Assembly: GCA_965116495.1 (NCBI GenBank)
Contig: OZ220696.1
Span: 864,001-928,000, forward strand
From: Gammaproteobacteria bacterium
Lineage (GTDB): Bacteria; Pseudomonadota; Gammaproteobacteria; Eutrophobiales; Eutrophobiaceae
Length of the DNA: 64,000 nt
Direction of reading: 5' to 3'
Part shown: positions 36,398 through 57,800 of the stretch, piece by piece
Position numbering within the stretch: the stretch's first letter is position 1
Layout of the letters: each line of letters begins with the position of its first letter
The notes under the pieces: model-generated
Told to the model about the DNA's origin: nothing
What the model saw: only the letters and a program-made list of their open reading frames with translations
Databases searched by the model: none
Translations under genes and position numbers: made by a program

Positions 36398-39300
36398 CTA
36401 CCCATCGTAATAGGGCCCTATTATATCCTCAATGCCAAACCCATCCACGCCGGCATCGTACCCCCCCACACCCCCATCCCCCAAGGTCAATGACAGCGCC
36501 GGGACGGACACGCGACCGGCCACCTGGGCGCTCAACTGGGACGCCGGGGGCGTCGGCCCCGTGCCCTCGAAAATCGCAAACTGGGATTCGTCCAGATCGG
36601 CGAGGTCGGTGTCCAGCAAGGTGATGCTGTCTTCCTTGCCGCTGGGATCCGTGTAAATGACCACGTCGTTGCCAATTTGTTCGGCATGGTTCGCCAGCAT
36701 CTCGTCGAAGTCGGCGAAGCCCACCTGGATGAGGAAGAAGCTGTCGCCCTCGTCCGGGTTGAAATCGGTGATCACGTCGCGGCCGAAATTGCCGTAGATG
36801 GTAAACCTGTCGTCGCCCGCGCCGCCGGTCATGCGATCGTGGCCGAAGCTACCGTTGATATAGTCCCTGCCGCCGCGCCCGTCGATCAAGTCGTTGTCGT
36901 CTGAGCCAACCAGCGAGTCCACCTCGTCGGTGCCGGTCATCGTGAGGCCGTTGTGGCGCCAGGGGGTGGGCGCCGGGTCGGATTCGGGTTCTGGCTCGGG
37001 TTCCGGGTCTGGCTCCGGGTCTGGTTCCGGCTCAGGTTCGGGTTCCGGGTCTGGCTCCGGCTCTGGTTCGGTTGAGGTCTCCTCGGGTTGTTGCTCCTCC
37101 TGTTCCGCTTCGATCTCGGTGAGGGCTTCCACCACCGGGTCCCAACGGCTCGCCGACCATCTGTCCGCCATCTCCTGCGCCTCGGTGGCGGTCATGGGCG
37201 TGTAGCCGTTGTCGTCGCCCAAGGCCGCGAGCACTTTCATCCAGCGGTCGACATGGGCCTGGCCGTTGTGGGTCTCGGCGGCATAACCGCGCACGTCGGC
37301 AATTAACTCGCTGTAGTCGTTCCCTTCATCCGCCTTCTTCCCCTGGCCGTTGTCGGGCGGGGTGAGCTGGTCGTCCAGGGTGGGGGCCGGCTCATCGTTG
37401 TCGGTGATGGTGGCCTCGCCGCTGGCATCGCCCAGGGTGGCGTTGCTGGGGGAGCTCAAGGTGACGGTGAAGGTCTCGTCGGTCTCATCCTCACTGTCAT
37501 CCGTGGTCTGCACCCAGAGGGTCGCGAATTGTGCGCCGGCGCTGATGGTCAGGGTTTGACCGGTCTGGCCGGTGTAGTCGCTGCCATCCGTTGCGGTGCC
37601 GTCGGTGGCAGTCCAGTTGACCGTAACGTCCTTGCCGGAGACCGCATCGAGCGAGACGGTGAACTGGAGCATATCACCTTCGGCCACGGTTACGTCGTCA
37701 ATGGACAATGAGGGCGCGGCGTCGTTGTCGGAGAGGGTGGCCTCCCCGGTGGCTGTGCCTATGGTGGCATTGGTAGGAGCGCTCAATGTAACAGTGAAGG
37801 TTTCATCCGGCTCGTCGATGGCGTCATCGGTGGTCTGCACGGTGATGGTGGCGCTCTGCTGACCCGCGGCGATGGTAAGGGTTTGACCGGCCTGGCCGGT
37901 GTAGTCACTGCCATCCACTGCTATGCTGTCGGACGTGTCCCAGGTAAGGGTGACGTCCTCCGTCCAGGTCTTGTCGAGACTCACAGTGAATTCGACCTCG
38001 TTGCCTTCGGTGACGGATACATCATCGATAGCGGCCACCGGCGGGGTGCTTGCCGCTTGCTGCGCCGCCTGCTCCGCTTCGATCTCGGTGAGGGCTTCCA
38101 CCACCGGGTCCCAACGGCTCGCCGACCATCTGTCCGCCATCTCCTGCGCCTCGGTGGCGGTCATGGGCGTGTAGCCGTTGTCGTCGCCCAAGGCCGCGAG
38201 CACTTTCATCCAGCGGTCGACATGGGCCTGGCCGTTGTGGGTCTCGGCGGCATAACCGCGCACGTCGGCAATCAGCGCGTCGTACCGGCCTGGCGGGGGC
38301 GGGTCATCGTTATCGGTGAGAGTAGCTTCGCCGCTGGCATCGCCCAGGGTGGCGTTGGTGGGGGAACTCAGGGTGATGGTGAAGGTCTCGTCGGTCTCAT
38401 CGTCACTGTCGTCGGCGGTCTGCACCGTGATGGTGGCGCTCTGCTGGCCGGCGGCGATGGTAAGGGTTTGACCGGTCTGGCCGGTGTAGTCACTGCCATC
38501 TGTAGCCGTGCCGTCAGATGTGTCCCAGGTAAGGGTGACGTCCTCGCCCCAGGTCTTGTCCAGACTCACGGTGAACTCGACTCTGCCCCCTTCGGTAACG
38601 CTCACATCGTCAATGGACGCCACCGGCGGAGTGGGCGGCGCTTGTTGTTTCGCCTCCTGTGCCGCCTCTATCTCAGTCAATGCCTCGGCCACCGGGTTCC
38701 AGCGCGGCCAGCCGTAACCGGCATAGTTCCGGGCTTCCTCCGCAGTCATGGGCGTATAGCCGTTGTCATCACCAAACGCCGCCAGTACCTGCATCCAGCG
38801 GTCCACGTGTGCCTGACCCTGGAACGTCTCCGCAGCATAGCCGCGCACCATGCCAATCAACTCGCTGTAGTCCGGGTCGGTTGCCTGCCCCGTGTCCTGG
38901 CTAGTGTCCTCGCTGAAATCTTCCGATGGTGTGATCGAAAAATCGTTCGTACTCAGATCTGACAGTTGCGTGTTCTTCAGGGTGACACGATTGGTCGTGC
39001 CGCTCTCATCCGTATAAATCACCACATCATTGCCGTCCTGCACGGCATGATTGGCCAGCATCCCGGCATAGTCGGCAAAGCCCACCGAGTCCAGGATGAC
39101 TATATCGCCCGCATCCGGGTCGAAGTCCTCCACCACGTCCTGCCCGTCACCGCCGTAAATATCAAACGCATCCGCGCCCGCGCCGCCGCGCAAGGTGTCG
39201 TTGCCCTGGGCGCCGGTCAGGACGTCGCTGTCCGCGCCACCTTCGAGCGTGTCATCGCCCGCACCGCCTTCGAGGAAATCCTTGCCGGGCCCACCCTTGA

Positions 39301-40723
39301 TAATGTCATCGCCGCCGTAGCCAAACAGATCGTCATCCCCGCCATGGCCCTCGATCAGGTCGCCGTCCATGTCGCCTTCCAGCACCTCACCGGCGTCGGT
39401 GCCGGTGACGGTGAGGCCGTTGTGTATGGTGAAGTTGGCTGCATTCAAATCCGACAGCAGTGTGTTCTTCAGGGTGACACTATTGGCCGTACCGCTCTCG
39501 TCCGTATAAATCACCACGTCATTGCCGTCCTGCACGGCATGGTTGGCGAGCATCCCGGCATAGTCGGCAAAACCGACCGAGCCCAGCCTGACCTCATCGC
39601 CGGCATCCGTGTCGAAGTCCTTAACCACGTCCCGCCCATGCCCTCCGTACACCACGAAGGCATCAGCCCCGGGCCCGCCGGTCAGGGTGTCGTTACCCGC
39701 ACCGCCAATGAGCCTGTCGTCCCCAGCGCCACCCATCAGAATGTCGTTGCCTGGCCCTGCGTTCAGGACGTTATCGGCCTCATTGCCCGTCAAACTATCA
39801 TTGCCACTGCCTGACGTGGCATTCTCGATCACCACGCCGTTGGCGATGAGAAAGCCACCAGGGATTTTCCATGCCCAGGAAACGTGGCCACCACCACCGG
39901 GTTCATATTCAAGCGTGGCCGCGCGCAAGTCGATCACGACATTGGCGGCGCCGGTGTACTCGATCACATCGGTCCCGCCGGTATCCCAGATGGTGTGATA
40001 GCCGTTTGCCTCTGCACGGGTGGCGGCCAGTGTATAAACATCATCGCCCCCTGCGTGGGTGGTGTTGGCGCCGTACATGTTTTGCAGGGCGGCAATGTCC
40101 AGCGCGCCGAACGTGGCATTGGCAGAGCCATCGCCGGGATCGTCCCAGCGACCGTCCCACGTATTTACAGTGTCCGCATTCGACGTCACGGTGAATATCG
40201 TCTGGTGCAGCCCGTAGCCGGATTTCATGATCTTGCTGAAGTTGCCTTCATCATCCGGGTGGGCCAGCCCCACTCCATGTCCTACTTCATGGAGGACCAC
40301 AAAGTAAAACCTCCCTCCCTGGTCGAATTGACCGCCGGGTTTATCAGTCCAGTCACCGCTTTTGGTGTTTGCCATGCCTTCCCCGCCGTTGCCGTTCCCA
40401 TCGGGGAAATCAAACTGGCCCCAAGGCATGCCGCGGCCCCCGGGTATACCACCAATGTGAATGCTGTTCTCTGGGGTGCCCTCGAAAACTCCGAACTTGA
40501 GATCGGCAGCATCCTTATCCGTCGTGAGTTGGAAATCAACGTTGATGAAGGTTTCCAGATTCTCGAAGACCGACCAGATCTGGGTTTTTTCATAGTCGGT
40601 CATGGTGCGGGCGTAGTACCAGTAGAAGGCAAGGTCACCTTCCTTGAACAAATACACCAGGACCGGATCCGAGGTATCCAGCTTGTGTTTTCCCTGAACG
40701 GCGTCAACAGGGTTATCGCTCAT
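36398..40723 (-). CDS. Serralysin-like M10 metalloprotease with RTX repeats, three Calx-beta domains and three Trp-rich helical repeats
   Basis: HEVGHGVGLAHP zinc motif, LDIAALQ.MYG, TIWDTGG.D, GGxGxD repeats, T.DGTA..GSDY...E.DETFTVTLS Calx-beta motifs; no signal peptide; C-terminal RTX block. Confidence 0.9.
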   Translation of the reverse strand: MSDNPVDAVQGKHKLDTSDPVLVYLFKEGDLAFYWYYARTMTDYEKTQIWSVFENLETFINVDFQLTTDKDAADLKFGVFEGTPENSIHIGGIPGGRGMPWGQFDFPDGNGNGGEGMANTKSGDWTDKPGGQFDQGGRFYFVVLHEVGHGVGLAHPDDEGNFSKIMKSGYGLHQTIFTVTSNADTVNTWDGRWDDPGDGSANATFGALDIAALQNMYGANTTHAGGDDVYTLAATRAEANGYHTIWDTGGTDVIEYTGAANVVIDLRAATLEYEPGGGGHVSWAWKIPGGFLIANGVVIENATSGSGNDSLTGNEADNVLNAGPGNDILMGGAGDDRLIGGAGNDTLTGGPGADAFVVYGGHGRDVVKDFDTDAGDEVRLGSVGFADYAGMLANHAVQDGNDVVIYTDESGTANSVTLKNTLLSDLNAANFTIHNGLTVTGTDAGEVLEGDMDGDLIEGHGGDDDLFGYGGDDIIKGGPGKDFLEGGAGDDTLEGGADSDVLTGAQGNDTLRGGAGADAFDIYGGDGQDVVEDFDPDAGDIVILDSVGFADYAGMLANHAVQDGNDVVIYTDESGTTNRVTLKNTQLSDLSTNDFSITPSEDFSEDTSQDTGQATDPDYSELIGMVRGYAAETFQGQAHVDRWMQVLAAFGDDNGYTPMTAEEARNYAGYGWPRWNPVAEALTEIEAAQEAKQQAPPTPPVASIDDVSVTEGGRVEFTVSLDKTWGEDVTLTWDTSDGTATDGSDYTGQTGQTLTIAAGQQSATITVQTADDSDDETDETFTITLSSPTNATLGDASGEATLTDNDDPPPPGRYDALIADVRGYAAETHNGQAHVDRWMKVLAALGDDNGYTPMTATEAQEMADRWSASRWDPVVEALTEIEAEQAAQQAASTPPVAAIDDVSVTEGNEVEFTVSLDKTWTEDVTLTWDTSDSIAVDGSDYTGQAGQTLTIAAGQQSATITVQTTDDAIDEPDETFTVTLSAPTNATIGTATGEATLSDNDAAPSLSIDDVTVAEGDMLQFTVSLDAVSGKDVTVNWTATDGTATDGSDYTGQTGQTLTISAGAQFATLWVQTTDDSEDETDETFTVTLSSPSNATLGDASGEATITDNDEPAPTLDDQLTPPDNGQGKKADEGNDYSELIADVRGYAAETHNGQAHVDRWMKVLAALGDDNGYTPMTATEAQEMADRWSASRWDPVVEALTEIEAEQEEQQPEETSTEPEPEPDPEPEPEPEPDPEPDPEPEPEPESDPAPTPWRHNGLTMTGTDEVDSLVGSDDNDLIDGRGGRDYINGSFGHDRMTGGAGDDRFTIYGNFGRDVITDFNPDEGDSFFLIQVGFADFDEMLANHAEQIGNDVVIYTDPSGKEDSITLLDTDLADLDESQFAIFEGTGPTPPASQLSAQVAGRVSVPALSLTLGDGGVGGYDAGVDGFGIEDIIGPYYDG
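36970..37070 (-). repeat. (EP/DP)n linker repeat
   Basis: EPEPEPDPEPEPEPDPEPDPEPEPEPESDP encoded by degenerate hexamers. Confidence 0.9.
37104..38272 (-). repeat. Identical 200-bp intragenic duplication (37104-37303 = 38073-38272); diverged third copy ~38657-38869
   Basis: Direct comparison; encodes VRGYAAETHNGQAHVDRWMKVLAALG...PMTATEAQ...RWDPVVEALTEIE. Confidence 0.92.
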
Positions 40724-40933
40724 AATTATCTCCAGCCTTGTCGATTACAGGCGGCTTCATAGCGGGATATACGATATTAGTATAAATATCATGCCTGTCA
40801 AGGAGGAGAGATCGGTAGCGCGGGCAATCATGTTGCTCTTAAATTAAAATCTGTAGCATTTCCGCTATCTTCTTGGCATATAATATTTTCTGATAAGGTT
40901 CGCGCTAATCATCATCCTGAACATGAGAACAGA

Positions 40934-41140
40934 ATGAACGAACATGCCCGTATCGTCATCATCGGTGGCGGCATCATGGGGGTTGGGTTGCTGTACCACC
41001 TGGCCGAAGAAGGCTGTACTGACGTTGTGCTCATCGAGAAGGGTGAACTCACTTCAGGTTCGACCTGGCACGCGGCGGGACAATGCCCGAACTTTGTGGG
41101 TAATTACAACCTCGCCAAAATCCATGAATACAGTATCTCC
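40934..41140 (+). pseudogene. N-terminal fragment of GcvT/dimethylglycine dehydrogenase-like FAD oxidoreductase
   Basis: IVIIGGGIMG..LLYHL, ELTSGSTWHAAG; similarity ends after ~68 aa. Confidence 0.88.
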
Positions 41141-41485
41141 GTGCCTGCGCCACCTGCTGTACGAGCAGCACAAACCGCGCAGTGCCGCTTTCTTCGACCG
41201 TGACATCGTCAATAGCCAGGCTCGGATTGGCGTCGGCGAAGATGAAGTCTGCCGCGTCGATCGTGGCGCCTGCCTGCGCGGTCAGGGTGATGCGGGGGGT
41301 CAGGTCCACGCGGCTATCCTGCGTTGCCCCGGAATAATCGAAAGTGTCTGTACCGCCGTCGTCGATCAGCGTGAAGGCGAACAGCCCGCCTGCCTGCATG
41401 TGCCGGGCAAGCTCGTCGAGGAAGCCGCCGGCATTGGCGTTGAAGCCGTAGGTGGTGTCGCCGGTGCGGATGGCATTGATTGTGA
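41141..41485 (-). pseudogene. Collapsed remnant of a second serralysin/Calx-beta gene
   Basis: RTGDTTYGFN..AG, FTLIDDGGTDTFDYSG..Q..RVDL, then TL......IDAADFIF, then PSLAIDDVTVEE.GTARF, all in one frame. Confidence 0.75.
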
Positions 41486-41673
41486 AGAGCGCGTATCTTG
41501 ATTTGTTCCACATGCACAAATGTCCCACATTTTGCTCGTATGTATCAAGCACCGTTCCCAACAATGATCAACAGAGGTTTTCTGAAGAAATTCGATTGGC
41601 AGTTACAAAATCCCCTCCTAACACGTTAGAATGGTATCCTCAAACCGTACGTATATTTTTTTGGGAGCACTAC

Positions 41674-41808
41674 ATGAAAGCAGTGGTATTGGAAGAACTC
41701 GGTGGGCCGGATCACCTGGAGATCAAGGAGGTGGATACGCCGGAACCGGGGCCGGGTGAGGTACGGGTAAGACTGAAAAATTCCGCCTTGAACCGGCGCT
41801 ATTACTGG
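41674..41808 (+). pseudogene. N-terminal fragment of zinc-type alcohol dehydrogenase/quinone reductase
   Basis: GGAG RBS; MKAVVLEELGGPDHL....VDTPEPGPGEVRVRL...ALNRR. Confidence 0.82.
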
Positions 41809-41810
41809 AA

Positions 41811-41909
41811 TCATTACGGCAACTGGAACGCAGCGCGGGCCGCTACGCGCTGGTCAGCATGTGTATCGGTATCGGACAGGGGATTGGCGTGGTGATTGAA
41901 CGTATGTAG
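41811..41909 (+). pseudogene. C-terminal fragment of a thiolase
   Basis: LRQLERSAGRYALVSMCIGIGQGIGVVIERM* with the thiolase CIGxGQG motif. Confidence 0.85.
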
Positions 41910-41921
41910 TGGTTGTTCGTT

Positions 41922-43319
41922 ATGAGGCAAAGTCCGATCAGAAACCCTGAGCGAATTTTGCTGCAATATGTCTGGGCCGTAGCCTTCCTGCTGGTCCCGC
42001 TGTCCCTGACCGCGGACACCGTCTCGCTCGACCTGACCCTGGAGCGGGCGATCGATCTTGCGCTGGAGCAGAACCGGCCGCTGCTTAACCGGCGCCTGGA
42101 TCGCGAGGTGCAAAAATTTTCCCTGGAAGTGGTTGAAGACCGTTGGACGCCTCGAGCCACCCTCCGCCCCTTCGTCAGCAAGGACCGGCAGGATCGCGAG
42201 ACGGGAGTCAGCAGCCAGATCAGCATGCGCGTGCCCACCGGCGGTCAGTTTGCCCTGCGCTGGGATGAAAGACTGTCCAGCGAGTTCGAGGATTCCCGCT
42301 CGCAGTCCCTGAGTTTTTCCCAGCCGCTGCTGAAAGGCGCCTGGATTGACATGGAGACTGCCCCGATCAGGCAGGCCCGACTGGGTGAAAGGCTTAACGT
42401 GCTCTCGTTTCGACAGACGGTGGAAGATCTGGTCGTTGCGGTCATCAGCGCATACCGCACGCTCATCGGCGCGGTGCGGCAAGTGGAGATTTCCGAGACC
42501 GCATTGCAGCGCGCGCGTGAGCAGTTGCAGGCAACCCGCGCCCTGATACGCGCCGGGCGCATGGCAGAGCGGGAGGCCGTGCGCGCCGAGGTGACCATCG
42601 CCACTCGAGAGTTGGCGTTGACCCAGGCGCGCAACCGCCTGGACGCCTCAAACTTCCGTTTGCTTGATATCCTCGAGCTGGGCAGTACGGTGCGTATCCA
42701 TCCGTTGGAAAGATTGAACGTTGAACCGAATCGAGCCACCTTCGAGGCAGTATTCGCCGAAGCGTTGCGCAAGCGCGCCGATTACCTTCAATCCGGGGCG
42801 CTGATCGACATTGCCCGCATCAACCTGGCGGTTGCCAAAAACAACCGGCTGCCGGACCTGTCCCTGGGGGTTGAGTTAAGCGATAACGACCCGGGACGCA
42901 AGGACGCGCAGGTTCGGCTGGACATTTCCATCCCTTTCAATGACCGTTTTCGCGACGTGGACCGTCTCAGGGCGCGCAACGACCTGCGCAAAGCCGAGAG
43001 AGCCCAGCTTGAGCTGCGCGAGTCGATCGACGTGTCCGTACGTCAGGCTGTCAACGACGTCAAGGTAGGGCATCGGTTGACGGAACTGGCCCGCGACGCG
43101 CGCCTGCTGGCAGAACAGAACCTGGACATTGAACGCGAGAAATTCGGTTATGGTCTGTCATCATCCTTCGAGGTATCGTCGTCCGAGGACGAACTCGTGC
43201 AGGCGGAGCAGGCCGAGGTGGATGCGATCCTCAGCTATCTCGACGTGCTGACGCGGCTTGACTATATCTCGGGCCGCACCCTGGACAGTTGGGGCATTCA
43301 AGTGGAAACTCTCCCGTAA
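41922..43319 (+). CDS. TolC family outer membrane factor
   Basis: Signal peptide, LTLERAI.LAL.QN, FSQPLLKGA, NRLPDLSL, two OEP-like halves. Confidence 0.88.
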   Translation: MRQSPIRNPERILLQYVWAVAFLLVPLSLTADTVSLDLTLERAIDLALEQNRPLLNRRLDREVQKFSLEVVEDRWTPRATLRPFVSKDRQDRETGVSSQISMRVPTGGQFALRWDERLSSEFEDSRSQSLSFSQPLLKGAWIDMETAPIRQARLGERLNVLSFRQTVEDLVVAVISAYRTLIGAVRQVEISETALQRAREQLQATRALIRAGRMAEREAVRAEVTIATRELALTQARNRLDASNFRLLDILELGSTVRIHPLERLNVEPNRATFEAVFAEALRKRADYLQSGALIDIARINLAVAKNNRLPDLSLGVELSDNDPGRKDAQVRLDISIPFNDRFRDVDRLRARNDLRKAERAQLELRESIDVSVRQAVNDVKVGHRLTELARDARLLAEQNLDIEREKFGYGLSSSFEVSSSEDELVQAEQAEVDAILSYLDVLTRLDYISGRTLDSWGIQVETLP

Positions 43320-45112
43320 TGGCAAACGACCCTCAAGACATTTACCGGACTTTGCTGGAGAACCTGTCCGACGGTGTGATGGCAGTTGACGTTGATGGGG
43401 CCGTGCGCCTCACCAACCCTGCCTTTTGCCAAATCTTCGGACTCGAGTCCGAGGCGGTAACCGGTCGCCCCTTTGCAGAAATATTTGTGGCATTTGAGGG
43501 CTTTGACGAGTTCGTCGAGATTATCCTGGACGCCATTACCGAGCAGGGCGAGATCAAGCGCCGCGTCGCGAGTGTGCATATCGGTGACGCAGTCCGCTCG
43601 TTGTCCGTCACGACCTCGTACCTGCTGGCATCCGGGCCAAAACAGACCGGGCAGGTAGCAATGATTGCCGTGGTTTCCGACATCTCCGAGATCAAGGAAC
43701 TGCGCGAGACCGAACTGCGCATGGCGAAAGTCGTCGAGAATCAGCTCAGTGAGCTGCAGAACGCCTATCGGGATATTGAGTCCCGCAACGAGACGCTGTC
43801 CGTGATGATGAAGAAGGTCCAGGCAACGCGTGGTGTCGCAGCGTTATTGGTGGCCGGACTGTTTCTCGCCATTGGTGGTTGGTACATTCAGCCGCTGGAT
43901 ATCATCAATTCCGACCCGGCGCCGGCGCTGTTGGCGGATGGCCAGGCCGCCGACCAGGCCACTGACCCGGAGACCTTGCAGACCATAACTCTTGCACCCC
44001 GGGAGTTCCGCTCGACCCTCGCGGTGCGCGGCAACCTGACACCGGGACACGTCGTGAAAGTCGTCAGCTCGGTCGATAGCCATGTGAGTGGGGTCCACGT
44101 TGCCCATGGCGAGAGAGTGGACGCAGGCGACGCGCTGCTCGAGCTTGAGCCCGGTCAGCTACTGATGGATTACCGTCGGATCCAGATCGAGTATATCCAG
44201 GCGCGCGACAAGCTGCTCGAGCTTGAAGACTGGGAAAGCAGCGACGAAATGGCGGGTGCCCGGCGCCTGTTGCGACGGGCAAAAATAGCGCTCGAAGATT
44301 CTGAGCTGAGGCTCCGGCGCACTGCTTTTCTGCTGGAAAAGGGGATAGTCCCTACCTCCGAGCACGAATCTGCGCAGCAACAACACCAGGAGCGCAAGCT
44401 GGATTTTGAACAAGCCGAGCGGGATTTGGAATCGACCAGAGAAAAAGGAGATGCTGAGGCAAGACGGGTCGCGCGCCTACAAGTGGAGAATGCGCAAAGC
44501 CAGGTTGAACAGCACGAGCAGAAACTGAATCAACTTGAGCTCGAGGCCCCGATTGCAGGGATCGTTGTTGCCGATGCAGGCATTGCGAATAAGCCCCTGG
44601 CCAAAGGCCGTCCGGTGGCCCAGGGTGAGCTGCTGCTGAGCATTGCCGATTTCGAGCAGATTTCGGTAGCCTCCAGTGTCGATGAGGTGGATGTCAGGAA
44701 GATCGAACCCGGCCAGCGCGCCTTGGTTACCGGCCCCGGGTTTCCGGGCCTGGAAATCGGCGGAACCGTTACCCGGATCTCGTCGCGCGTACTTGGCGGC
44801 AGGAGGCAGCGGGGCGCGCCTGAGTTCGATATCGTGATTGCCCTGGACAGGTTGGATGCGGCCGCGCGTGAACAGTTACGGGTCGGCATGTCGGCCTACG
44901 TCACGATCATCGTACACAGCGATCCGGAGGCGTTGCTGATTCCGATCGACGCGGTGCAGGAGTCCGGCGCTGAAACCTGGGTGCGTGTGCTCGACCGGAA
45001 CACTGCCGCGGTGGAGCAACGCGCGGTCAGACTGGGCTTCACGACACTGGATTCGGTCGAAGTGATAGCAGGACTCGCGGTCGGGGAAGAAATCGTCCTC
45101 CCGGAAAGATGA
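43319..45112 (+). CDS. Periplasmic adaptor (MFP) with N-terminal PAS domain
   Basis: LLENLSDGVMAVD.DG.V...NPAF..IFG......GRP...VSDISE PAS signature, coiled coil, TM helix, then lipoyl halves (V..GERV.AGD.LL; APIAGIV), VDEVDV.KI.PGQ, LRVGMSA, ALLIP..AV; TAATG coupling to tolC. Confidence 0.88.
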   Translation: MANDPQDIYRTLLENLSDGVMAVDVDGAVRLTNPAFCQIFGLESEAVTGRPFAEIFVAFEGFDEFVEIILDAITEQGEIKRRVASVHIGDAVRSLSVTTSYLLASGPKQTGQVAMIAVVSDISEIKELRETELRMAKVVENQLSELQNAYRDIESRNETLSVMMKKVQATRGVAALLVAGLFLAIGGWYIQPLDIINSDPAPALLADGQAADQATDPETLQTITLAPREFRSTLAVRGNLTPGHVVKVVSSVDSHVSGVHVAHGERVDAGDALLELEPGQLLMDYRRIQIEYIQARDKLLELEDWESSDEMAGARRLLRRAKIALEDSELRLRRTAFLLEKGIVPTSEHESAQQQHQERKLDFEQAERDLESTREKGDAEARRVARLQVENAQSQVEQHEQKLNQLELEAPIAGIVVADAGIANKPLAKGRPVAQGELLLSIADFEQISVASSVDEVDVRKIEPGQRALVTGPGFPGLEIGGTVTRISSRVLGGRRQRGAPEFDIVIALDRLDAAAREQLRVGMSAYVTIIVHSDPEALLIPIDAVQESGAETWVRVLDRNTAAVEQRAVRLGFTTLDSVEVIAGLAVGEEIVLPER

Positions 45113-45143
45113 ACGGCAACCCCTGCTATTGCCAGCCACCGTC

Positions 45144-45899
45144 ATGAACGCGCCAGATAAAATGTTGCGCCTGGTTGACGTGCGCAAATCCTACCGCATC
45201 GGGCCGGCTACCAGGGAGATCCTGCAAGGCATCCACCTGGAAGTCAACACTGGTGACCTGCTATCGATCATGGGGCCCTCGGGTAGCGGCAAGACTACGT
45301 TGATGAACATCATTGGCCTGCTCGACCGTCCCGGCGCCGGCGACTGTTACCTCAATGGGCGCGCGATCTCCGGGTTGACGGATGACGAGCTGTCCTCGCT
45401 GCGTAACGAGCATATCGGGTTTGTGTTCCAGTCCTTCCAGTTGTTGCCGCAGTTGACGGCCATCGAAAACGTTTGCCTACCGCTGGTGTACCGGGGTATG
45501 GGGCAGGCGGAGATGAGGCAGCGGGCGCAGACCCTGCTGGCGCGCGTGGGCATGGATGACTGGGCGGGGCATCGGCCCGACCAGCTCTCCGGCGGACAGA
45601 AGCAGCGAGTTGCCATTGCCCGGGCACTGGCGGGAGAGCCGGCGCTGTTGCTCGCGGATGAACCCACCGGCGCCCTGGATAGCGACACCGCGACCGAGGT
45701 CATGACCCTGCTCCTGGAATTGAACTCGGAGCAGGGGGTGACGATCCTGATCATCACCCATGACCCACTGGTGGCGCGGCAATGCACGCGCCAACTGCGC
45801 ATCAATAACGGCTTGTTACAGGAGAAGGGAATGTCTGCCCGGGGGGTTGCCGCCACGCGGCAACCGCTTGCAGGCGCCCAGGCAGGGTATGCGGGTTAG
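45144..45899 (+). CDS. MacB/LolD-type ABC ATPase
   Basis: GPSGSGKTT, IGFVFQSFQL, LSGGQKQRVAIARA, ADEPTGALD. Confidence 0.95.
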   Translation: MNAPDKMLRLVDVRKSYRIGPATREILQGIHLEVNTGDLLSIMGPSGSGKTTLMNIIGLLDRPGAGDCYLNGRAISGLTDDELSSLRNEHIGFVFQSFQLLPQLTAIENVCLPLVYRGMGQAEMRQRAQTLLARVGMDDWAGHRPDQLSGGQKQRVAIARALAGEPALLLADEPTGALDSDTATEVMTLLLELNSEQGVTILIITHDPLVARQCTRQLRINNGLLQEKGMSARGVAATRQPLAGAQAGYAG

Positions 45900-47106
45900 A
45901 TCTCTTGCAATCCTGCAGGCAAATGCCCGCGAGGCGGTTAACAGCCTGCGCAAGGCAAGGCTGCGCACACTGCTGGGGCTGCTTGGCATCATGATCGGTA
46001 TCTCATCGGTTATTACAATGGTCTCGTTGGGCGAAATAGCCAGAGAGCAGGCGCGCAAAGAATTCGAAGCTATCGGCACCGACATCCTGATCATTCGCAA
46101 GTCGTACGAGACCTCGACCCCAGAGCAGGAGGCGGCGGAAATTGACCTGGCGGATGCCGTAGCATTGGCGCCGGCGCTTCCTTCAATTGCCGAGGCTGCG
46201 CCCAGGATCGCGAGCTATGGGGAATTCCGTTACGCCGGCAAGACAGTCGGCGAGGGAACCATCCAGGGCGTCACCGCGTCGTACTTCAGTGTGAACCGTT
46301 TGTCCATGGCATCCGGCCGGTTTATCTCGAACCTGGATGCCAACCGCCACTACTGTGTCGTTGGCGCCGGCATTGCCGAGGCAATGCGCCAGGTCGGGGT
46401 ACAACAGCTTGTGGGACAGATCCTGGAGATTGACGAGGAACTCTTCACGGTCCTGGGCACATTAAATGACAAACAGGAGAGTTACACCTTGCCCATCCGG
46501 GTGGAGGCAAATAATTCTGTCTTCATACCAATCACGACCGCGCAGCGCCTCGACTCCAACCCGGAGATCGACGTGATCGTTGCCAGGTCAAGCGCCGGCG
46601 TCCATTACGAGCAGGCGGTGCAAGACGTTCATTCATTCATGCGGAACAGGTCGCGGGATCTCCTCCTGGACATCATCACCGCCAAGGAATGGATAGCCCG
46701 GATGGAAGCGCAAATGCGCATCATGACCCTGCTGCTGGCCGCAGTGGGCAGCATCTCCCTCATCGTCGGCGGAATCGGGATCATGAATATCATGCTGGTG
46801 TCCGTAGCGGAACGCCGCCGCGAGATCGCGATCCGGCGTGCGCTGGGCGCGCGCCGGGGGGACATTCAAAGCCAGTTCCTCATTGAATCCATTATCCTGA
46901 CGGTAGCGGGGGGAGCGCTTGGCGTTGTGCTCGGCTTGCTGGTGACCTGGGTAGCCTGCCAGTTCACCGAATGGGAGTTCCTCATCTCAGGCATATCCGT
47001 GGTAAGCGGTATCGGTACCGCCTCCGCAGTCGGCCTGTTCTTCGGCTTCCAGCCCGCTCGTCAAGCCTCCCGCCTGGACCCGATCACCGCGCTTCAGGGA
47101 AGCTGA
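45889..47106 (+). CDS. MacB/FtsX-type ABC permease
   Basis: RTLLGLLGIMIGI.SVI, ISLIVGGIGIMNIMLVSV.ERRREIAIRRALGA, FG..PAR.A.RLDPI.AL. Confidence 0.93.
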   Translation: MRVRSLAILQANAREAVNSLRKARLRTLLGLLGIMIGISSVITMVSLGEIAREQARKEFEAIGTDILIIRKSYETSTPEQEAAEIDLADAVALAPALPSIAEAAPRIASYGEFRYAGKTVGEGTIQGVTASYFSVNRLSMASGRFISNLDANRHYCVVGAGIAEAMRQVGVQQLVGQILEIDEELFTVLGTLNDKQESYTLPIRVEANNSVFIPITTAQRLDSNPEIDVIVARSSAGVHYEQAVQDVHSFMRNRSRDLLLDIITAKEWIARMEAQMRIMTLLLAAVGSISLIVGGIGIMNIMLVSVAERRREIAIRRALGARRGDIQSQFLIESIILTVAGGALGVVLGLLVTWVACQFTEWEFLISGISVVSGIGTASAVGLFFGFQPARQASRLDPITALQGS

Positions 47107-47487: not shown

Positions 47488-47540
47488 ACCACACATTGCA
47501 AGGCACAATCCGTGCCCGCGACAGCAATGGGAGACCACAG

Positions 47541-48151: not shown

Positions 48152-48188
48152 CAGGACCGGGGACAGAACAGGTCTGTCCCCGGTCCTG
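48152..48188. repeat. Perfect 16-bp hairpin (REP-like, possible terminator)
   Basis: CAGGACCGGGGACAGA-ACAGG-TCTGTCCCCGGTCCTG followed by GTTTTT. Confidence 0.75.
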
Positions 48189-48245
48189 GTTTTTGACTCA
48201 GGCGACGCGTTCTACCTCCACCAGGCTGTCAAATACCCGGGGGGG

Positions 48246-48466: not shown

Positions 48467-48525
48467 ACTTGTTCCTAATAACCCTGCATACTGGTTGTGA
48501 CAAAGCATATTGTTTATTGCATATA

Positions 48526-48788: not shown

Positions 48789-48859
48789 CAGCCTGTATTC
48801 GTAGGTGGTTACCCGAATGTTCTCATGTGCTACGAGAGGGTAGGGCGCGGTGTTCAATT

Positions 48860-51800
48860 TTGAAGATCATTTCGGCAAGAAAAACTAATGAGTGGCGCGC
48901 CGGCGTGTTTTGCTTGTTGGCGTTGCTGCTTGCGGGTGGTTGGTCAACCGCGGTCCAGGCCCAGAACAGTGCATACCTGACGCTTGACCTGGTTCAGATA
49001 CGGGCCAATGCGCTGCACGGCGCCACGATCAAAATCACTCCGAAAAACGCCACTTTCCTCGGTGCCGGCGGGGGCGCCGGCTTCGATCTCGAGGACTTTG
49101 TGCATTCGGATGATTGGGATTCCGAAAGCGGCCAGCTCACCGCTGCCGCCATAGCCGGCGAAATCAGGCTGAACGCCACGGGTCTTTCCAGAATCACATT
49201 GCAGGGCGCGCCTGCGGGGCTGAGCATCGCGCGCGCGAAGCTGCTGGCGCGCGAGCAACCCCACTCGCACGGCAGGGCCAGCAAAGGCCATCGCTCCGCG
49301 CAGATCACCCTGGCCTACACCGGCTCCGGCATCAATGCCGACGTTGCGGTCACGGTGGCTGTGCAGGGCGGCGCCGATGGCCTGCTTTCGTATGGCAATC
49401 AACACGCGGGCTACCCGGGCGCATCCTGCTGCACTGCCGGCTTCACCATCAGGACCGGGACCCTCACCGACGGCGTCAGCGTGAATCCGGCCTCCCTGGC
49501 CGTCACCGAACGCGGTGGCGCCAGCGCCGAGGCCGGCTACAAGGTGGGGCTGCTGACGGACCCGGGCGCCGATGTCACCATCACGGCCACGGTGCCGGCG
49601 GCCAATACCTCCGATGTTGAGGTCAAGGCGGGCAGCGGCTCATTCGGCAGCGCCGCGACCCTGACCTTCACCCACGGGAGCGGCGGCAACTGGACCCAGG
49701 CGCAAACGGTGACGGTGCGGGCGAAGAACGACAGCGACACCGCCGACGAATCGTTCAACATCACTCATTCGCTGAGCGTGGCGAGCGGGCCCTACCGAAC
49801 CATAACGCCGGCCTCGGTCGCGCTGGCCGTCACCGATGCCGGCGCCGGCGTACCGCTGTCCTTCAGCGCCGCGGCTTACCGCGCGAACGAGCCTGCGTCC
49901 ACCACCAACGCGGCGCTGGGCCTCACGCTGTCGAGCACGCGCCCCTCGGCCACGACGGTGACCGTCGAGAGGACGGGCGGCAGCGCCACGGCGGACGACG
50001 ACTATACGGCCGGCCCCTGGACCGCGACCATCGCCGCGAACACCATCACCGGCACGGTCAACATTCCCATCCGTCACGACACGACGGACGAGCCCAACGA
50101 GACCGTCGAGCTCAGCATCCGGGCGAGCAGCCTGCCGACAGGGGTGGTACCGGGCAGCCAGGGAACGGCGACGCTCACAATCACCGACAACGACGCAACC
50201 AGCGTGACGCTGGCGGGTTCCGGCACGGTGAAGGAGGACGGCAGCGATGCGGCGGACGTGGCGGTCACGCTGGGCCGCAAGCTGGCGGGCGGCGAGTCGG
50301 TGACCGCACCGCTGGTCATCGCGGGCACCGGCATCACCCGCAAGGACTACGATATCGGATTGAAAACCGGCGGCAACTACAACCGGGGGGTGTCGCTCAA
50401 TAGCGCCAGCCCCTACAGCCGCTGGAGCCCCGCGGTGGTGTTCACAGGCTCCGACGTGAATACGGTGCGGGTGGCGACGCTTGCAGTGACCGGGAAGGAG
50501 GACACCCGCGACGAGGGCGCTTCGGAGACGCTGACCGTAAACTTCGGCAGCGGCGACCAGGCGGTCAGCAGCAACCTCGACCGCCCCTCGGGTACCGGCG
50601 CCGCCGGCACCACCGCCTCGGGCTCGGCGAGCGTGGCGATCACCGACAACGACCAACCGCCGTCCCTTGTGGTCAGCCCGCGCATCATCAGCGCCCGCAA
50701 CCTTCAAGACGGCGGCACGGCCACGCTCACGCTGACACCGAAGAATTCGACCTTTTTCGGCGCGGGCGGCGGTGGCGGCCACAGTGGCAGCAATCCATCC
50801 GCACCCTATGTGTTTTTCGACGACCGCAACGACCGGGGCGAAATCCCCAACACCGAGGTTCGCCTCAGCGCGACCGGCTTGTCGAAAATCAGCTTGTCGG
50901 GCACGTCGGCACCTCTGACCATCAGCGCCGGCCGGCTGCTCCCGATCCAGTACGACGTGCACGGCGCGGAACAGCACCGGTCCGTGGAGATCGACCTGAG
51001 CTACGCCGGCCCGCCGATCACAGCGGACGACCAGGTGACAGTCACGGTGGACAGCGACCTGCTGCGATTCGGAGATCAGAGCGGCGGCAGCCCCGCCAGC
51101 CAGTCCGCCCGTTTCACGATCAAGCCACTCGACCCCAATGCCGGTCTGACTATCAGGGAAACCGGCAGCCCCGCCGAGACCGTCGTTGGCGAAAACGGCG
51201 GAGCGGACCGCTACGACGTGGTGCTGAGGACCCGACCGACGCATCCTGTCACCGTGACGGTAACGGCGGGCGCCGGAACGCTGGTGGATGGGCCCGACGC
51301 GGGCAACGCGGGCGCGTCTACCGAAACCCTCACATTCAACCCCACCGGGAGCGCTCTCTGGAGCACGCCACAGACCATCACCGTGACCGGCGTCGATGAC
51401 GACATCGACAACGCCGGCAACGCCCGCACCGTGATGATCGATCACGCGGCCAGCTCGAACGACCACAACTACGCCGTCAACGACGCCGGCAGCCTGAGCG
51501 TGAAGGTGACTGACGATGACCGCGCCGGGGTGACTGTCTCTCACGCCGCGCACACGCTGGCCGAGAACGGCGGCGTCGCCACCTACACCCTGAAGCTCGA
51601 CTCGCAGCCGCTCAAGGCGGTGACGATCACTGTGGACGCCGGCGACGGCAGCGTCGTGAAGGTGGATGGACCGGACAGCGCGACCGACTTCACCAACGCG
51701 GAAGCCCTCACCTTTACGCCCTCGAACTGGAATTCGGCGCAACAAATCAGCATCGAGGGCCAGAACGACAATGCCGTGACCTACCTGCCGCGCAGGGCGA

Positions 51801-54800
51801 CGATCGCGCATTCGATCGCCTCGCTGGCACTCGGCGATGGACGCCGCTACCTCCCGGACATGGCCATTGCCGGCGTGGACGTGAGCGTGTCCGACGATGA
51901 CAAGCCGGTCCTGACGCTCACGGAGAAGAACGGGAACACGGAAATCCGCGAGGGCGGCAGCGCCACCTTCACCGTGACCTCGAGCGACCCCGCGCCGAGC
52001 GGCGGCTTGCCGGTCACGCTGCCGACGCTGAGCTTCTCCGACGGCTACAGCGGCAGCCTGTCGCCCGCCACGATCACCATTCCGGCTAATGCCACGACCG
52101 TGGATTTCAACGTCGATATCGACGACCGCGCCGACGAGCCGGACGGGACGTTTACCGTGTCCCTGAACACCGGGACGCACTACGAGCTCGGCGCCGCTTC
52201 CTCGCTGGAGCTGGCGGTCACGGACAACGATCCCACGTCCGTGACCCTGGCGGGCAGTCCGGCCGGCTACCTGGTCGAGGGCGGCGCCAAGACCCTCACG
52301 CTCACCCTGGGCCGGGGCCTGGTCAAGGGCGAGACCCTGACGGCGCCGCTCACTTTCGCGGGCACGGCGGCGCGCAACACCGACTACAGGCTCACCACAA
52401 CTGCGGCGAGGGGCGTGGCCTACAACAACCTCGGCAGCGGCAGCGCGAGCGTGGTGTTCACCGGCCCGGCCACGGGAACCACCGCGACCGTGGCCACCAT
52501 CAACTTCACCGCCACCTCGGACAGCGTAGTCGGGAGCACCACGGAAACGGTGGGCATCGGGCTGGGCACAGCCACGAATACGGGTTCGGGCGGCGGCGTG
52601 ACCGCAACCGACAACCTTCCCGGCTTTCACATCGTGGACTCCGTAGCGCCCTCCGAGCCGATTGTGACGCTGTCGCAGCCCGACACGACGACGCTGAAGG
52701 AGGGTGGGGACGCGGTGGAGTTCGACCTGCTCGTGAGCCCGCCTTACTTCCAGCAACCGTTCTCGCTGGTAACGCTTGAACTTTCAGGCAAGGCGGCCAG
52801 TGGCCAGGACTATCGCCTGGAAGCTGTGAGCGGGGGATCGGTCAGTTCGTGGGCCTTTTTCGTGAACCAGGGCGTGTCTTCGATGCGGCTGCGGCTGGTG
52901 CCGCTGGCGGACGACCGGGATGAGCCGAGCGAGTCCATCGTGATTTCGGTGCCGGATCAACTGCAGGTGTACCGCGATGCGGGCAACGCCGCCTACACGG
53001 TGAGCGCGCCGCGATCGGTGAAATTCACGCTGACGAGCGCCACCGCACCCCCGCCACCACCCCCGCCGGTCGAAACTCCCGGGGTGACGGTCTCGACCGC
53101 ATCGCTCGATCTTGCCGAGGGCGGTTCGACCGGCAGCTACACGGTAGTGCTCGACAGCAAGCCGACCGCGAACGTGACGGTTACCGCCGCCAGCGGCGAC
53201 GCGGCCACGGTTCGGGTGCAGGCCCCGGGCGGCAATCCGGGCGCCAGCGCCACCCTCACCTTCACGCCAACGACCTGGGACCAGACGCAGGCCGTGACGG
53301 TGACGCCGCAAGACGATGCAAACGCCGACGACGAGACCGTGACGATCGCGCACGCGGTGAGCAACACCGGCGGCTACGGCGGGGTGACCGCAGACTCCGT
53401 CACCGTCACGGTGGACGATGACGAGACGCCGGTGGCGCCAACCCCTTCAGTGTCCATTGCGCCCACCTCGGCCAACGCCGTCACCGAAGGCGCCGCCGCC
53501 ACCTTCACGCTCACCGCCAGCCCGGCGCCGCAAAGCACGATCACGGTGGACGTCAACGTGGTGGACAGCGGCAGCTTTGCCGATAGCGGTCAGGCCGGGT
53601 CGCGCCAGGTCACCATTGGCACGGGTGGCAGCGGTACGCTCACCGTCACCACCGACAACGACAGCGCCGACGAGCCCAACGGCACACTCACCGCGACCGT
53701 CAACAGCGGCACGGGCTACACGCCGTCCAATACCAACGCGTCAGCGTCGATTTCGGTCAATGACAACGACGATCCTCCGCCGGCGACGCCGGTGGTGAGC
53801 ATCAGTGGCGGCGGCGCGATTACCGAAGGCGGCACGGCCACCTTCAACCTGAGTGCCAGTCCGGCGCCACAAAGCACGATCACGGTGGACGTCAACGTGG
53901 TCGACAGCGGCAGCTTCGCCGGTAGCGGACAGGCCGGGTCGCGCCAGGTCACCATAGGCACGGGTGGCAGCGGCACGCTCACGGTCACCACCGACAACGA
54001 CAGCACCGACGAGCCCAACGGCACGCTCACTGCCAACGTCACCAACGGCACGGGCTATGCGCCATCCAGCAGCAACGCATCGGCATCGATTTCGGTCAAT
54101 GACAATGACGATGCCATCATCCCGAGCGCCTGCGTGTCGGACACACTTCTGCAACAGGTTGAGGACTATTACGATCACAATAGCAGTAATTCGCCCGGCT
54201 ACGGGCATAACTGGTTCCGCGTACTCGTTGCGTTTGGTGCGCGCAGTCCTTCCGACTGGACAGCGGACAACCGCGTTATCGAGCCGATGACCGCTGCGTC
54301 CGCACGCGTGCGGGAGGCGAGTTGGTTTGGCTGGGGACCGGTTGCGGACGCGCTGGAATGTCTGGAAGCGGTTAACCCCGCCCCCGATCCCGAGATCGCC
54401 ATCGCCGGTGGCAGCGCGGTCACCGAGGGCGGCAGCGCCACCTTCACGTTCACTGCGACCCCGGCGCCGCAGAGCACGATCACGGTGAACGTCAACGTGG
54501 TGGACAGCGGAGACTTTGCCAATAGCGGCCAGGCGGGTTCCAGGACCGTCACCATCGGCGCCGGTGGCAGCGGCACGCTCACCATCACCACCGATGACGA
54601 CAGCACCGACGAGCCCGATGGCACACTCACCGCGACTATTGCCAGTGGTCAAGGCTATACGCCGTCCAATACCAATGCTTCAGCGTCAATCGCGGTCAGC
54701 GACAACGACGATCCGCCCCCGCCCGTAGTCAGCATCGCCGGTGGCAGCGCTATTACCGAGGGCGGCACCGCCACCTACACACTCACCGCGACCCCGGCGC

Positions 54801-57800
54801 CCGCGAGCTCAATTACCGTGAACCTTAACGTCGTGGACAGCGGCAATTTCGCGGACAGCGGCCAGGCAGGCGCCCGTACGGCCACCATCGGCACGGGCGG
54901 CAGCGGTACGCTCACCGTCACCACCGATAACGACAGCACCGACGAGCTTGACGGCACGCTCACCGCGACTATTGCCAACGGCCAGGGCTATACGCCGTCC
55001 AACACCAACGCTTCGGCATCGATCTCAGTCAATGACAACGACGACGCCATCATTCCGAGCGCCTGCGTGTCGGACACACTTCTGCAGCAGGTTGAGGACT
55101 ATTACGATCACAATAGCGGTAATTCGCCCGGCTACGGGGAGAACTGGTTCCGCGTGCTGGTGGCGTTTGGCGCGCGCAGTCCCTCCGACTGGACAGCGGA
55201 CAACCGCGTTATCGAGCCGATGACCGCTGCGTCCGCACGCGTGCGGGAGGCGAGTTGGTTTGGCTGGGGGCCGGTTGCGGACGCGCTGGAATGCATCGAA
55301 GGGGCCGGCCCCGACCCTGATCCCAATCCTGTAATCACCATCGCCGGCGGCAGCGCCATTACCGAGGGCGGCAGCGCCACCTTCACGTTTACTGCGACCC
55401 CGGCGCCGCAGAGCACGATCACGGTGAACGTCAGCGTGGTGGACAGCGGCAGCTTCGCCCGCAGCGGCCAGGCGGGATCGCGCCAGGTGACCATCGGCAC
55501 AGGCGGCAGCGGCACACTCACCGTCAGCACGGCCAACGACAGCACCGACGAACCCAACGGCTCGCTCACTGCAACCGTCACCAGCGGTACGGGCTACACG
55601 CCGTCCAACACCAACGCGTCAGCATCCATTTCGGTCACAGACAACGACGATCCTCCGCCGGCGACGCCGGTGGTGAGCATCAGCGGTGGCAGCGCCGTTA
55701 CCGAAGGCGGCACGGCCACCTTCAGCCTGAGTGCGAGTCCGGCGCCGCAAGGCGAGATCACGGTGAACGTCAACGTGGTAGACAGCGACAGCTTCGCCGG
55801 TAGCGGCCAGACCGGATCGCGCCAGGTGACCATCGGCACCAACGGCAACGGCACGCTCACCGTCACCACCGATGACGACAGCACCGACGAACCCAACGGC
55901 AGTATCAGCGCCACGGTGACGAGCGGCACGGGCTACAGCGTGCACAGCCGGAACAATTCGGATTCGGTGGCGGTCAACGACAACGACCTGCCGCCGCCCA
56001 CGCCCGCCGTCAGCATTTCCGGCGGCAGCGCCATCACCGAGGGCGGTTCGGCCACCTTCACGCTCACCGCTTCGCCCCCGCCGCAAGGCAGTATCAGCGT
56101 GAACGTCAGAGTGACCCAGAGCGGCAACTTCGCCCGCAGCGGCCAGACCGGGTCGCGGCGCATCACCATCGGCGGGAGCGGTACCGCGACCTTCAACGTC
56201 ACCACCACCAACGACAGCGACGACGAGCCCGACGGCAGTATCAGCGCGGCAGTGATCGGCGGTACTGGCTACAGCGTGCACAGCCAGAACAATTCGGATT
56301 CGGTGACGGTCAACGACGACGACGTGGTGGTGCCCGTCATTCGTGTGACCTCGGCGCAATCCTCGCGCACCACCGACTATGAGGGCGCCACACTCAAATT
56401 CACACTGCACGCCGACGTTGCCCCCAGTGTGGATCTGGAGGTAACCGTTAACGTCGCCGAGCCGGGCAACGCCTTCGTCAACAGCGCCGACGTCGGTACC
56501 CGCCAAGTCACGATTCCGGCGCGCCAGAAGCAAGCCACGCTGAACGTGCGCACGAATGACGACAGCGTTGTGGAAGATTCCTCAAGCGCCAGGGTGACCG
56601 TGACCGTGACCGTGCAGGCCGGCACCGGCTACACCGTGGCGTCGGCGCCCCGGCACCAGGCCGAGGCCACCGTACACGACAACGACGGCCTGCCGACGCT
56701 ATCCATCGGCGACAGTGAGGCGGCAGAGGGCAGTGAGGTCTATTTTGAGGTCACGCTGTCAAAACCGGTGGCGCACAAGGTGCGGTTCAGCTACTACACC
56801 GAGTCGGGGGACTACCAGGGCCGCCACTACGGCAGTGCCTTGAGCTCGACGGATTATCCCTACACCAGCAATAACGGCAGCATCCACCCTGGCGGCACCC
56901 GGTTCGAGATTTGGATACCGACCTTCGATGACTCCCATGACGAGGGCAACGAGACCTTCACGGTCATCCTGCGCAACCCCGAGGGAGCGACCCTTGAGGA
57001 CGGCGAGGGGACGGGCACCATCAAGAACTCCGACCCACTGCCCACCGCCTTCCTGGGCCGCTTCGGACGCGGTCTGGCCGAGCAGGCTGTGGGCGGCATC
57101 ACCGGCCGCTTCAAGGCGACCCGCACCCCGGGCTTCCACGGCCAGTTCCTCGGCCGCGCCCCGTCCGGGGGCGAGAACAGGGAGGCCGACAACGCCGAGC
57201 GTGCACTGGCCCTGTCCCAGGACCGCGCCCCGGCCTTTGCCGGGAACGGCATGGACGGGGCCACAGGCATGGCCGGTAGTGACCTGGGTGGTGTGGGCAT
57301 GGGTGATAGGGGTATGCCTGGTGCGGGTGCTGTATCTTCATCCGGCGCCCTCAGCGGCCATCCTCCCCCGTCCGCGCCTACCCGCACCCTGACCCTGGCT
57401 GAAGCCCTGGCCGGCTCGGCCTTCACCTACACACGCGAGGCCGACGAGGCCGGCGGCAGCTTCGGCCTCTGGGGCCGCGGCATGCATTCCACCTTCAACG
57501 GCTCGGAAGGTACGCTGAACGTAGAAGGTAAACTCACCACGGGACTCATCGGCGCCGACTACGCCCGTCACGACTGGCAGGCCGGCCTGGCCGTGCTCCT
57601 GACCGGGGGCAAGGGCCGCTTCAGGGGTGAGACCGGCCACGGCAAGCTGGACACGTCCATGACCGCCTTTGTGCCCTACGCCGCCAAACAGGCCGGCCGC
57701 CTGTCCCTGTGGGGCGCCGCCGGGGTGGGGCTCGGAGAGATGACCCTCTCTGAGACCCTGTCCGAGACCCACAGCACGGCGTCCCTGAGCACGGACATGG

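Follow-up and report, generated by a model that had tools for sequence, protein, structure and literature searches.

A helical module of 70-80 residues is repeated five times in a stretch of 64,000 nucleotides from a gammaproteobacterium of the family Eutrophobiaceae (contig OZ220696.1, positions 864,001 to 928,000), the whole of which we call the window. The module is a real domain family, uncatalogued and of a familiar functional kind. A first-pass annotation, made from the letters of the window, had quoted motifs for five copies, three of them from an RTX/M10 protease and the other two from an autotransporter, and had proposed a mobile domain outside any named family; the copies and the motifs are borne out, and the proposal is supported, as the library searches gave no characterised domain. 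For its function, we see about an even chance that the module is a non-catalytic tether, one that would hold an extracellular, probably host-matrix, ligand by avidity.

The module and its two subtypes

The module comes in two subtypes, the R-type (pattern H-[VIAT]-x-[RK]-W) and the N-type (pattern NW.RVL). Among 631 distinct module stretches, 497 follow the first pattern and 61 the second, and the 73 that fit neither are excluded. The copies in the window and the proteins that carry them are the following:

36398..40723, minus strand: RTX/M10 (serralysin-like) protein of 1441 residues, in which RTX blocks and Calx-beta domains flank three R-type modules (open reading frame; Pfam)
40259..40291, minus strand: zinc-binding motif HExxHxxGxxH, residues 145-155 of the RTX protein (sequence)
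38663..38872, minus strand: module copy 1, R-type, without Cys, residues 618-687 (motif and profile)
38075..38287, minus strand: module copy 2, R-type, residues 813-883 (motif; AlphaFold2 four-helix model, predicted local distance difference test score (pLDDT) 94.8)
37106..37318, minus strand: module copy 3, R-type, residues 1136-1206 (motif; DNA repeat with copy 2)
48827..58573, plus strand: autotransporter of 3248 residues, with a Calx-beta-like stalk, two N-type modules and a C-terminal barrel (open reading frame; Pfam)
54131..54370, plus strand: module copy 4, N-type, residues 1769-1848, Cys1769...Cys1845 (AlphaFold2 four-helix model, pLDDT 84.4)
55064..55303, plus strand: module copy 5, N-type, residues 2080-2159, Cys2080...Cys2156 (sequence)
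57467..58075, plus strand: match to the autotransporter beta-domain PF03797 (40.5 bits against a cut-off of 26)

All five copies share the core W..VL.A[FL]G / PMTA / W.PV..AL, and the only other motif match in a six-frame scan of the window is a lone PMTA at 19075. A profile search of the 4.34-Mb genome returns the five copies of the window only. Each module holds three Trp in 70-71 residues in the RTX protein and four in 80 in the autotransporter. The Cys flanks that had been noted on the autotransporter modules are there (Cys1769/1845 and Cys2080/2156), and the RTX version lacks them; the number of Cys in the whole RTX protein is zero.

Copies 2 and 3 of the RTX protein are identical at 68 of 71 residues, and the underlying DNA repeat (228 nucleotides, 96% identity) is confined to the module, from which it follows that the module was duplicated as a unit. 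The two autotransporter copies share 76 of 80 residues, copy 1 of the RTX protein shares 50-53 of 70 with copies 2 and 3, and the R-type and N-type copies of the window share 23-25 of 69. The earlier description of the copies within each gene as identical or nearly so therefore holds for RTX copies 2 and 3 and for the autotransporter pair and fails for RTX copy 1, and the recent expansion that was read from it applies to some copies and not to that one. The orthologue of the RTX protein in a relative (L010) has two modules against three. At 38051-38652, we observe a contig joint that omits 600 nucleotides in all three runs compared, a weak signal with 27 letters on the short side; it is consistent with a two-module allele or a paralog like L010, and the copy number of the module appears to vary.

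We compare the two subtypes through separate alignments of 331 (R) and 35 (N) non-redundant rows. The first-pass annotation would have been wrong if the two repeat types were unrelated; hhalign joins them at 99.6% (E 8.7e-24), and the hidden Markov model of each subtype finds the copies of the other with E values between 2e-8 and 2e-7 among the 58,780 open frames of the genome, where the best background E is about 2. Bridging forms (L003, L009, L012) have an R-type core that carries the Cys pair. By these profile comparisons the R and N types are one homologous family. Unrelated convergent repeats are ruled out by the same profile homology, a low-complexity artefact by the confident fold and the conserved core, and an artefact of annotation or assembly by the open reading frames, the orthologues in relatives and the presence of the DNA in runs from two studies. 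Upstream of a divergent module in L003 (2677-3831, minus strand), we see another helical unit that contains Trp, begins in a similar way, has similar spacing and receives no score from the profile; it is possibly a third, remote subtype.

Known families and folds offer no name for the module. Neither the window modules (E up to 10) nor 43 members (E up to 1) have a significant match in Pfam, the best value being that of Haem_oxygenas_2 (E 0.0015, in 4 of the 43). NCBIfam and the sequences of the PDB give no significant match either, nor do the PHROGs for the 43 members, where an unnamed family reaches E 0.0014 in 8 of them. A partial profile match to the B3/4 domain of 9mkl (E 0.013-0.016) is rejected as chance and is absent from the fold results. 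Foldseek returns nothing at E<=0.001 from the PDB (both models) or from BFVD. With the R-type model, VIA gives as its best match a designed bundle (Z 6.1, root-mean-square deviation 3.0, 73 residues aligned), the others being unrelated generic bundles; these matches reflect a common helix arrangement and are neither homologues nor proof of a new fold. The ESM Atlas returned no entries, which speaks for neither novelty nor absence, and full-text literature searches, which left out supplements and most subscription papers, gave no description of such a domain.

Predicted fold and the conserved end of the bundle

AlphaFold2 predicts four helices for the R-type (7-17, 24-36, 48-57 and 60-77; pLDDT 94.8, predicted template modelling score (pTM) 0.85), and the four helices that it predicts for the N-type match these (pLDDT 84.4, pTM 0.79). 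With residues such as Y16 and R61 given in profile numbering, W30, W62, L34, A51 and G38 are nearly invariant among 250 non-redundant modules, and Y16, E19, H26, R29, R32, M46, T47, E50, R61, P64 and E73 are kept in 77-89% (His26 in 82%, Tyr16 in 80%, Glu19 in 77%). Across 47 diverse members, the two Trp are the only invariant residues.

The coupling analysis of the 250 non-redundant modules (effective number of sequences about 140) ranks Y16-R61 and C4-C71 at the top, has E19-H26, E19-R61 and H26-R61 within the first 16 pairs, and includes W30-W62, R32-E50 and A48-E73. The pairs between helix 1 and helix 4 (C4-C71, L9-A68, D12-P64 and Y16-R61) run in an antiparallel register, which places the termini, the disulfide and the loop between helices 2 and 3 at one end and the conserved turns at the other. 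The predicted structure is thus an up-down bundle with the termini, an optional disulfide and a variable loop at one end and the coupled cluster at the far end. The loop carries 0.9 bits, against 2.2-2.3 bits for both conserved turns, core residues included. The invariant Trp pair is coupled (W30-W62) and more likely belongs to the core than to a binding surface.

The cluster at the far end consists of Tyr16/Glu19/His26/Arg61 with Trp59 in the R-type and of Tyr/Asn/Tyr/Asn/Trp-x-Gly-Trp in the N-type, which has neither Glu19 nor His26, and it is at this end that the differences between the subtypes fall. We regard the Tyr/Glu/His/Arg cluster as a candidate binding site, with R and N types that would differ in specificity. 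Two other uses of the bundle have to be considered here. A cluster of this composition may suggest a module that binds a small ligand or a metal, or is weakly catalytic. Metals or small molecules are frequent ligands of four-helix bundles, and the conservation of His26, Glu19 and Tyr16 would suit such a site; however, Glu19 and His26 are wholly missing in the N-type, the residues invariant over the diverse members are the two Trp, and the haem-oxygenase-like Pfam matches are weak, at or under the curated cut-off. We consider this use very improbable. An inert, structural role in long immunoglobulin-like (Ig-like) stalks, as a spacer or as an aid to folding, is suggested by the frequent alternation of modules with Calx-beta, by a generic fold and by top-conserved residues (W30, L34, A51, W62) that look like core. 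It is an improbable explanation all the same: with both termini predicted at the same end the module would not lengthen a stalk, terminal tandem copies space nothing, the polar H26, E19, R29 and R61 are conserved at 77-83%, and it is as a unit that the module has spread across phyla.

The Cys pair is all-or-none, with 124 modules having both residues, 366 neither and 11 only one (n=501). It is found in 0 of 36 modules of RTX carriers and in 187 of 668 other modules, a comparison in which the 16 RTX carriers include close relatives and are hence not independent. Cargo of type I secretion bypasses the periplasm and its oxidation, and for this reason the Cys-free modules of the RTX carriers fit type I export. 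The disulfide suggested by the first-pass annotation gains support from the covariation of the two Cys and from their absence in RTX carriers, and the bond itself is a prediction.

Distribution of the module and architecture of its carriers

The five-sequence profile reaches 962 representatives (50% identity) at E<=0.001; we retrieved the 150 best of these and added more proteins through further searches. The names of the carrier sources include Gammaproteobacteria, Alphaproteobacteria, Binatia, Acidimicrobiaceae, Thaumarchaeota, Dadabacteria and Anaerolineae; their records are all of the metagenome-assembled genome (MAG) type or uncultured, and most of the carrier proteins are unnamed. The module is present in 1 of 400 genomes sampled from its own class (the window's own genome), in 6 of 201 from the class Binatia and in 7 of 78 from one alphaproteobacterial order. 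It was not found in plasmids, phages or IMG/VR viral contigs, and narrow patterns gave two loci only among metagenome contigs.

Six of the 23 genomes of the window's own genus carry the module, in 1-14 copies each. On an RpoB tree of 21 of the 23 (G016 and G007 are left out, having no match or a split RpoB), the six carriers require at least four gains or losses and form a single group in 0% of bootstrap trees, and the clustering of the carrier label is not significant (75 of 500 shuffles are as low). Some module-negative genomes are incomplete; G018, G019, G014, G015 and G022 are 97-98% complete. Near-identical genomes differ, with 14 copies in G020, one in G002 and none in G018 (97% complete). 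Open reading frames of 13,000-21,000 codons with Calx-beta domains occur in G010, G005, G011 and other members of the genus, module-less ones included.

At the DNA level, the window module is matched at 72-78% by alphaproteobacterial loci and at 81% by one from Binatia, and the flanks have no match. An archaeal module is identical to those of the window at 28-37 of about 74 residues. A tree of 47 modules, built on 72 columns and with a long-branch warning, so that we attach no weight to where the archaeal clade falls, groups the modules by subtype rather than by taxon: N-types of Gammaproteobacteria and Acidimicrobiaceae fall together, as do Cys-bearing R-types of Gammaproteobacteria and Dadabacteria, and near-identical copies from Alpha- and Gammaproteobacteria. 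From the module-only DNA identity, the subtype-wise tree and the patchy distribution in the genus, we infer that the module has moved laterally between lineages.

The source is likely a sponge-type symbiont. Its genome has 30 Calx-beta and 8 ankyrin matches, and no flagellin is found in it (99.5% complete). In the excerpts of PMC8163846, the phyla of sponge MAGs include most of the carrier lineages, Binatia not under that name, attachment genes are described as laterally transferred, and adhesion is important in the sponge niche; those of PMC11706023 describe Calx-beta and fn3 as enriched in sponge Actinobacteriota.

Now consider the proteins in which the module sits. Of 302 proteins collected, 294 carry it and 288 of these have two to five copies, in a set ranked by summed score and so biased to multi-copy proteins. 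R-type modules alone occur in 235 of the 294, N-type alone in 8 and both in 51. By class, 43 carriers have a barrel, 16 have RTX motifs and 235 have neither, and the module is terminal in 154 of the 228 Met-starting carriers of the last kind (107 C-terminal, 36 N-terminal, 11 at both ends). The placement between Calx-beta or linker segments that had been thought constant holds in the window and fails in the family at large, which often has the module at the N- or C-terminus. For the most part, the Pfam domains of 130 carriers are those of Ig-like stalks (Calx-beta, fn3, bacterial Ig, cadherin), leucine-rich repeats and RTX; a few are of enzyme type (M10, S8 and PPDK_N), and SLH, dockerin and glycoside hydrolase catalytic domains are absent from this set. 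Archaeal paralogs have in common a C-terminal cassette of Ig-like domains and 2-3 modules (about 300-420 residues) and differ in their N-termini. Probable thaumarchaeal paralogs lie together on one 2.3-Mb contig (P0129, P0216, P0243, P0251, P0252, P0254 and P0256) and on a second contig (P0114, P0239, P0241, P0242, P0248 and P0250). Four apparently exported carriers (P0017, P0018, P0168 and P0224) contain a PPDK_N-like (ATP-grasp) domain above the Pfam cut-off, an odd site for a nucleotide-binding fold.

The terminal placement raises the question of whether the module is an SLH-like anchor that binds a shared glycan of the microbe's own envelope (capsule, O-antigen or S-layer glycan). Terminal tandem modules are seen in 154 of the 228 carriers without barrel or RTX motifs, LPxTG is not found in the carriers, and only 15 of 287 have a further hydrophobic segment; the barrel-less L003 and L009 terminate on the module where the comparable stalk of L005 runs on into a barrel; and in autotransporters the module is cell-proximal. 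On the other hand, the carriers comprise diderms, monoderm-type lineages and archaea, an anchor would be redundant on proteins already held by a barrel, and the wall polymer would have to flip between the near-identical G020/G002 and G018. On balance, we take such an anchor to be unlikely.

The presence of the two subtypes in one genome raises a second question, that of dockerin-like docking, in which enzymes would be assembled on autotransporters through binding between modules (R-R or R-N) or of modules to a cognate scaffold or a protein of the host. The genome of the window does pair an R-type secreted protease with an N-type surface autotransporter, the 51 carriers with both subtypes would suit such pairing, and the module has the small helical size of dockerins. 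Docking is nevertheless rather unlikely in our estimate: most carriers have the R-type alone, the Ca-binding loops of dockerins are absent and PF00404 does not match, G429 has two autotransporter copies only and G002 a single copy, and no partner family turned up, in work that made no systematic search for partners or cohesins. A homodimer prediction for the R-type (score 0.21 against a mark of 0.42) gives no answer either way.

Of the two carriers in the window, the RTX protein is matched in Pfam by Peptidase_M10 (24.8 bits against a cut-off of 24), Peptidase_M10_C, HemolysinCabind and Calx-beta, with RTX repeats (PF00353) in seven stretches; the full-length serralysin family NF035945 reaches 122.8 bits, under its cut-off of 500. 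A PrtD-type type I exporter is encoded elsewhere in the genome (TIGR01842, 674.7 bits against a cut-off of 510). The Met of the Met-turn M-S-Y and the Tyr that follows are absent from this protein and likewise from its orthologue L010, and are present in 10 of 10 other M10 sequences compared. Judging by the sequence of its catalytic domain (40100-40300, minus strand), with the zinc motif intact and the Met-turn Met missing, it is possibly a low-activity or altered protease. The barrel of the autotransporter is a weak and partial match, found by scanning the C-terminal 523 residues alone (profile positions 1-212 of 255), a scan of the whole protein having given no barrel match; the last residue is Trp, and the N-terminus shows by eye a hydrophobic stretch with AVQA at its end.

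Between the two carriers (41913-47106, plus strand) are genes for a TolC-like protein, a membrane-fusion protein, an ABC ATPase and a MacB-like permease, the membrane-fusion protein (43289-45112) having an unusual fusion to an N-terminal PAS domain. The region 40936-41900 is a patch of short gene-like pieces, which, read by eye, are probably the start of a Rossmann-motif oxidoreductase running into an opposite-strand piece like a serralysin C-terminus; part of it (41292-41478) matches L001/L002 at 89-93% DNA identity, and the patch looks like recombination debris. Just upstream of the autotransporter (47496-48092, plus strand) lies a small single-Calx-beta protein with an 87% DNA match near an RTX gene in L002. 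Preceding the carriers (24391-34828, minus strand) are a helicase-like open reading frame, a DNA methyltransferase, a type III restriction subunit and a Fic protein, and this gene set together with a step in GC content at 36-58 kb suggests an accessory island.

A proposed function and its place among known systems

The tether that we favour would work as follows. Two to five modules per exported protein would bind an extracellular polymer with avidity, most likely a glycan or glycoprotein of the (probably sponge) host matrix, through the conserved far end of the bundle, and the ligand would differ by subtype. In the genome of the window, the module would keep the type I-secreted protease close to the host matrix, and the barrel-anchored autotransporter would hold on to that matrix by the module. 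A host-matrix ligand is favoured because the cell envelopes of the carriers differ, and to assume one external ligand for all of them is more economical than to assume one wall polymer. The first-pass idea of a putative avidity or binding domain fits the copy number and the position.

Several observations weigh against the host-matrix tether. In barrel carriers the module is held cell-proximally, at a median of 47-67% along the passenger and 184-690 residues before the barrel, and a copy lies in the distal fifth of the passenger in only 3 of 43. This is the pattern of a tether and not of a tip adhesin, and it suits binding of the microbe's own surface layer at least as well as reach to the host. 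The habitat is deduced from taxon names and papers, and the genus members G003, G010 and G015, with 27 to at least 82 Calx-beta matches, have no module, which makes the module dispensable for that lifestyle in general. The surface exposure of the cluster residues is an expectation from the model, their coupling partly reflects the split into subtypes, an archaeal subfamily alters Y16, E19 and R61 jointly, and the role of the cluster could be structural alone. With a median net charge of -4 and -3, the module is acidic, which disfavours sulfated glycans, and the generic bundles matched by VIA include no structural homologue that would hint at a ligand.

A bolder form of the host-matrix tether, which we rate as possible, if doubtful, is that the module is an address tag shared across domains of life in sponge microbiomes: a laterally passed domain would recognise a specific host ligand, the R and N types would read two of them, and gain and loss would track the host that can be held. 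If this is true, microbes would have in the module a defined receptor by which they are retained in the sponge matrix, and the host ligand could be sought with it as a probe. In the excerpts of PMC8163846, the retention and sorting of sponge symbionts are inferred mostly from enriched generic domains (cadherin, fn3, ankyrin). A well-folding module common to bacteria and archaea of the consortium and rare in broad class samples is a directly testable handle, with 70 residues, easy expression, a predicted binding end, two natural variants of specificity and natural forms with and without Cys. Once identified, the ligand would prove to be either a host receptor for symbionts or a surface polymer that crosses domains of life, and in any case a family without annotation, with about a thousand representatives, is added.

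Among known systems, SLH domains (PF00395), which as generally described bind a pyruvylated secondary wall polymer, are like the module in being small and helical, in occurring as 2-3 tandem terminal copies on varied exoproteins and in that catalysis is not expected of them. Unlike them, the module has four predicted helices and also lies within RTX proteins, autotransporters and proteins of archaea, and SLH is missing from the Pfam matches of the 43 members and the window modules at the thresholds given above. The SLH fold is not among the Foldseek and VIA matches listed for the module, and such lists do not exclude it. Type I dockerins (PF00404) are likewise domains of about 70 residues added to diverse secreted enzymes and stalk proteins; the module differs in that its column profile shows no duplicated Ca-binding loops and in having no Pfam match. 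Carbohydrate-binding modules (CBMs) and FIVAR, GA and protein A domains are also repeated small accessory domains that give avidity, and the module appears to gather aromatic and polar residues at one face as CBMs and helical binding repeats do. None of those families is in the Pfam matches of the 43 members; most CBMs are beta-rich, and FIVAR, GA and protein A domains have three helices.

The carriers can be placed more closely. The RTX protein is like serralysin (M10B) in its zinc motif, its RTX repeats and the PrtD-type exporter of its genome, and unlike it in the inserted Calx-beta domains and modules and the missing Met-turn Met and Tyr. The second carrier is like the type Va autotransporters, whose barrels have 12 strands, with PF03797 above its cut-off in a weak and partial barrel match. 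The excerpts of PMC8163846 and PMC11706023 describe Pfam-annotated domains and leave the helical module unmentioned, and the eukaryote-like surface proteins of sponge symbionts that they present, with Calx-beta, fn3 and cadherin domains, are proteins of the carrier type, from the same lineages and with the same lateral transfer.

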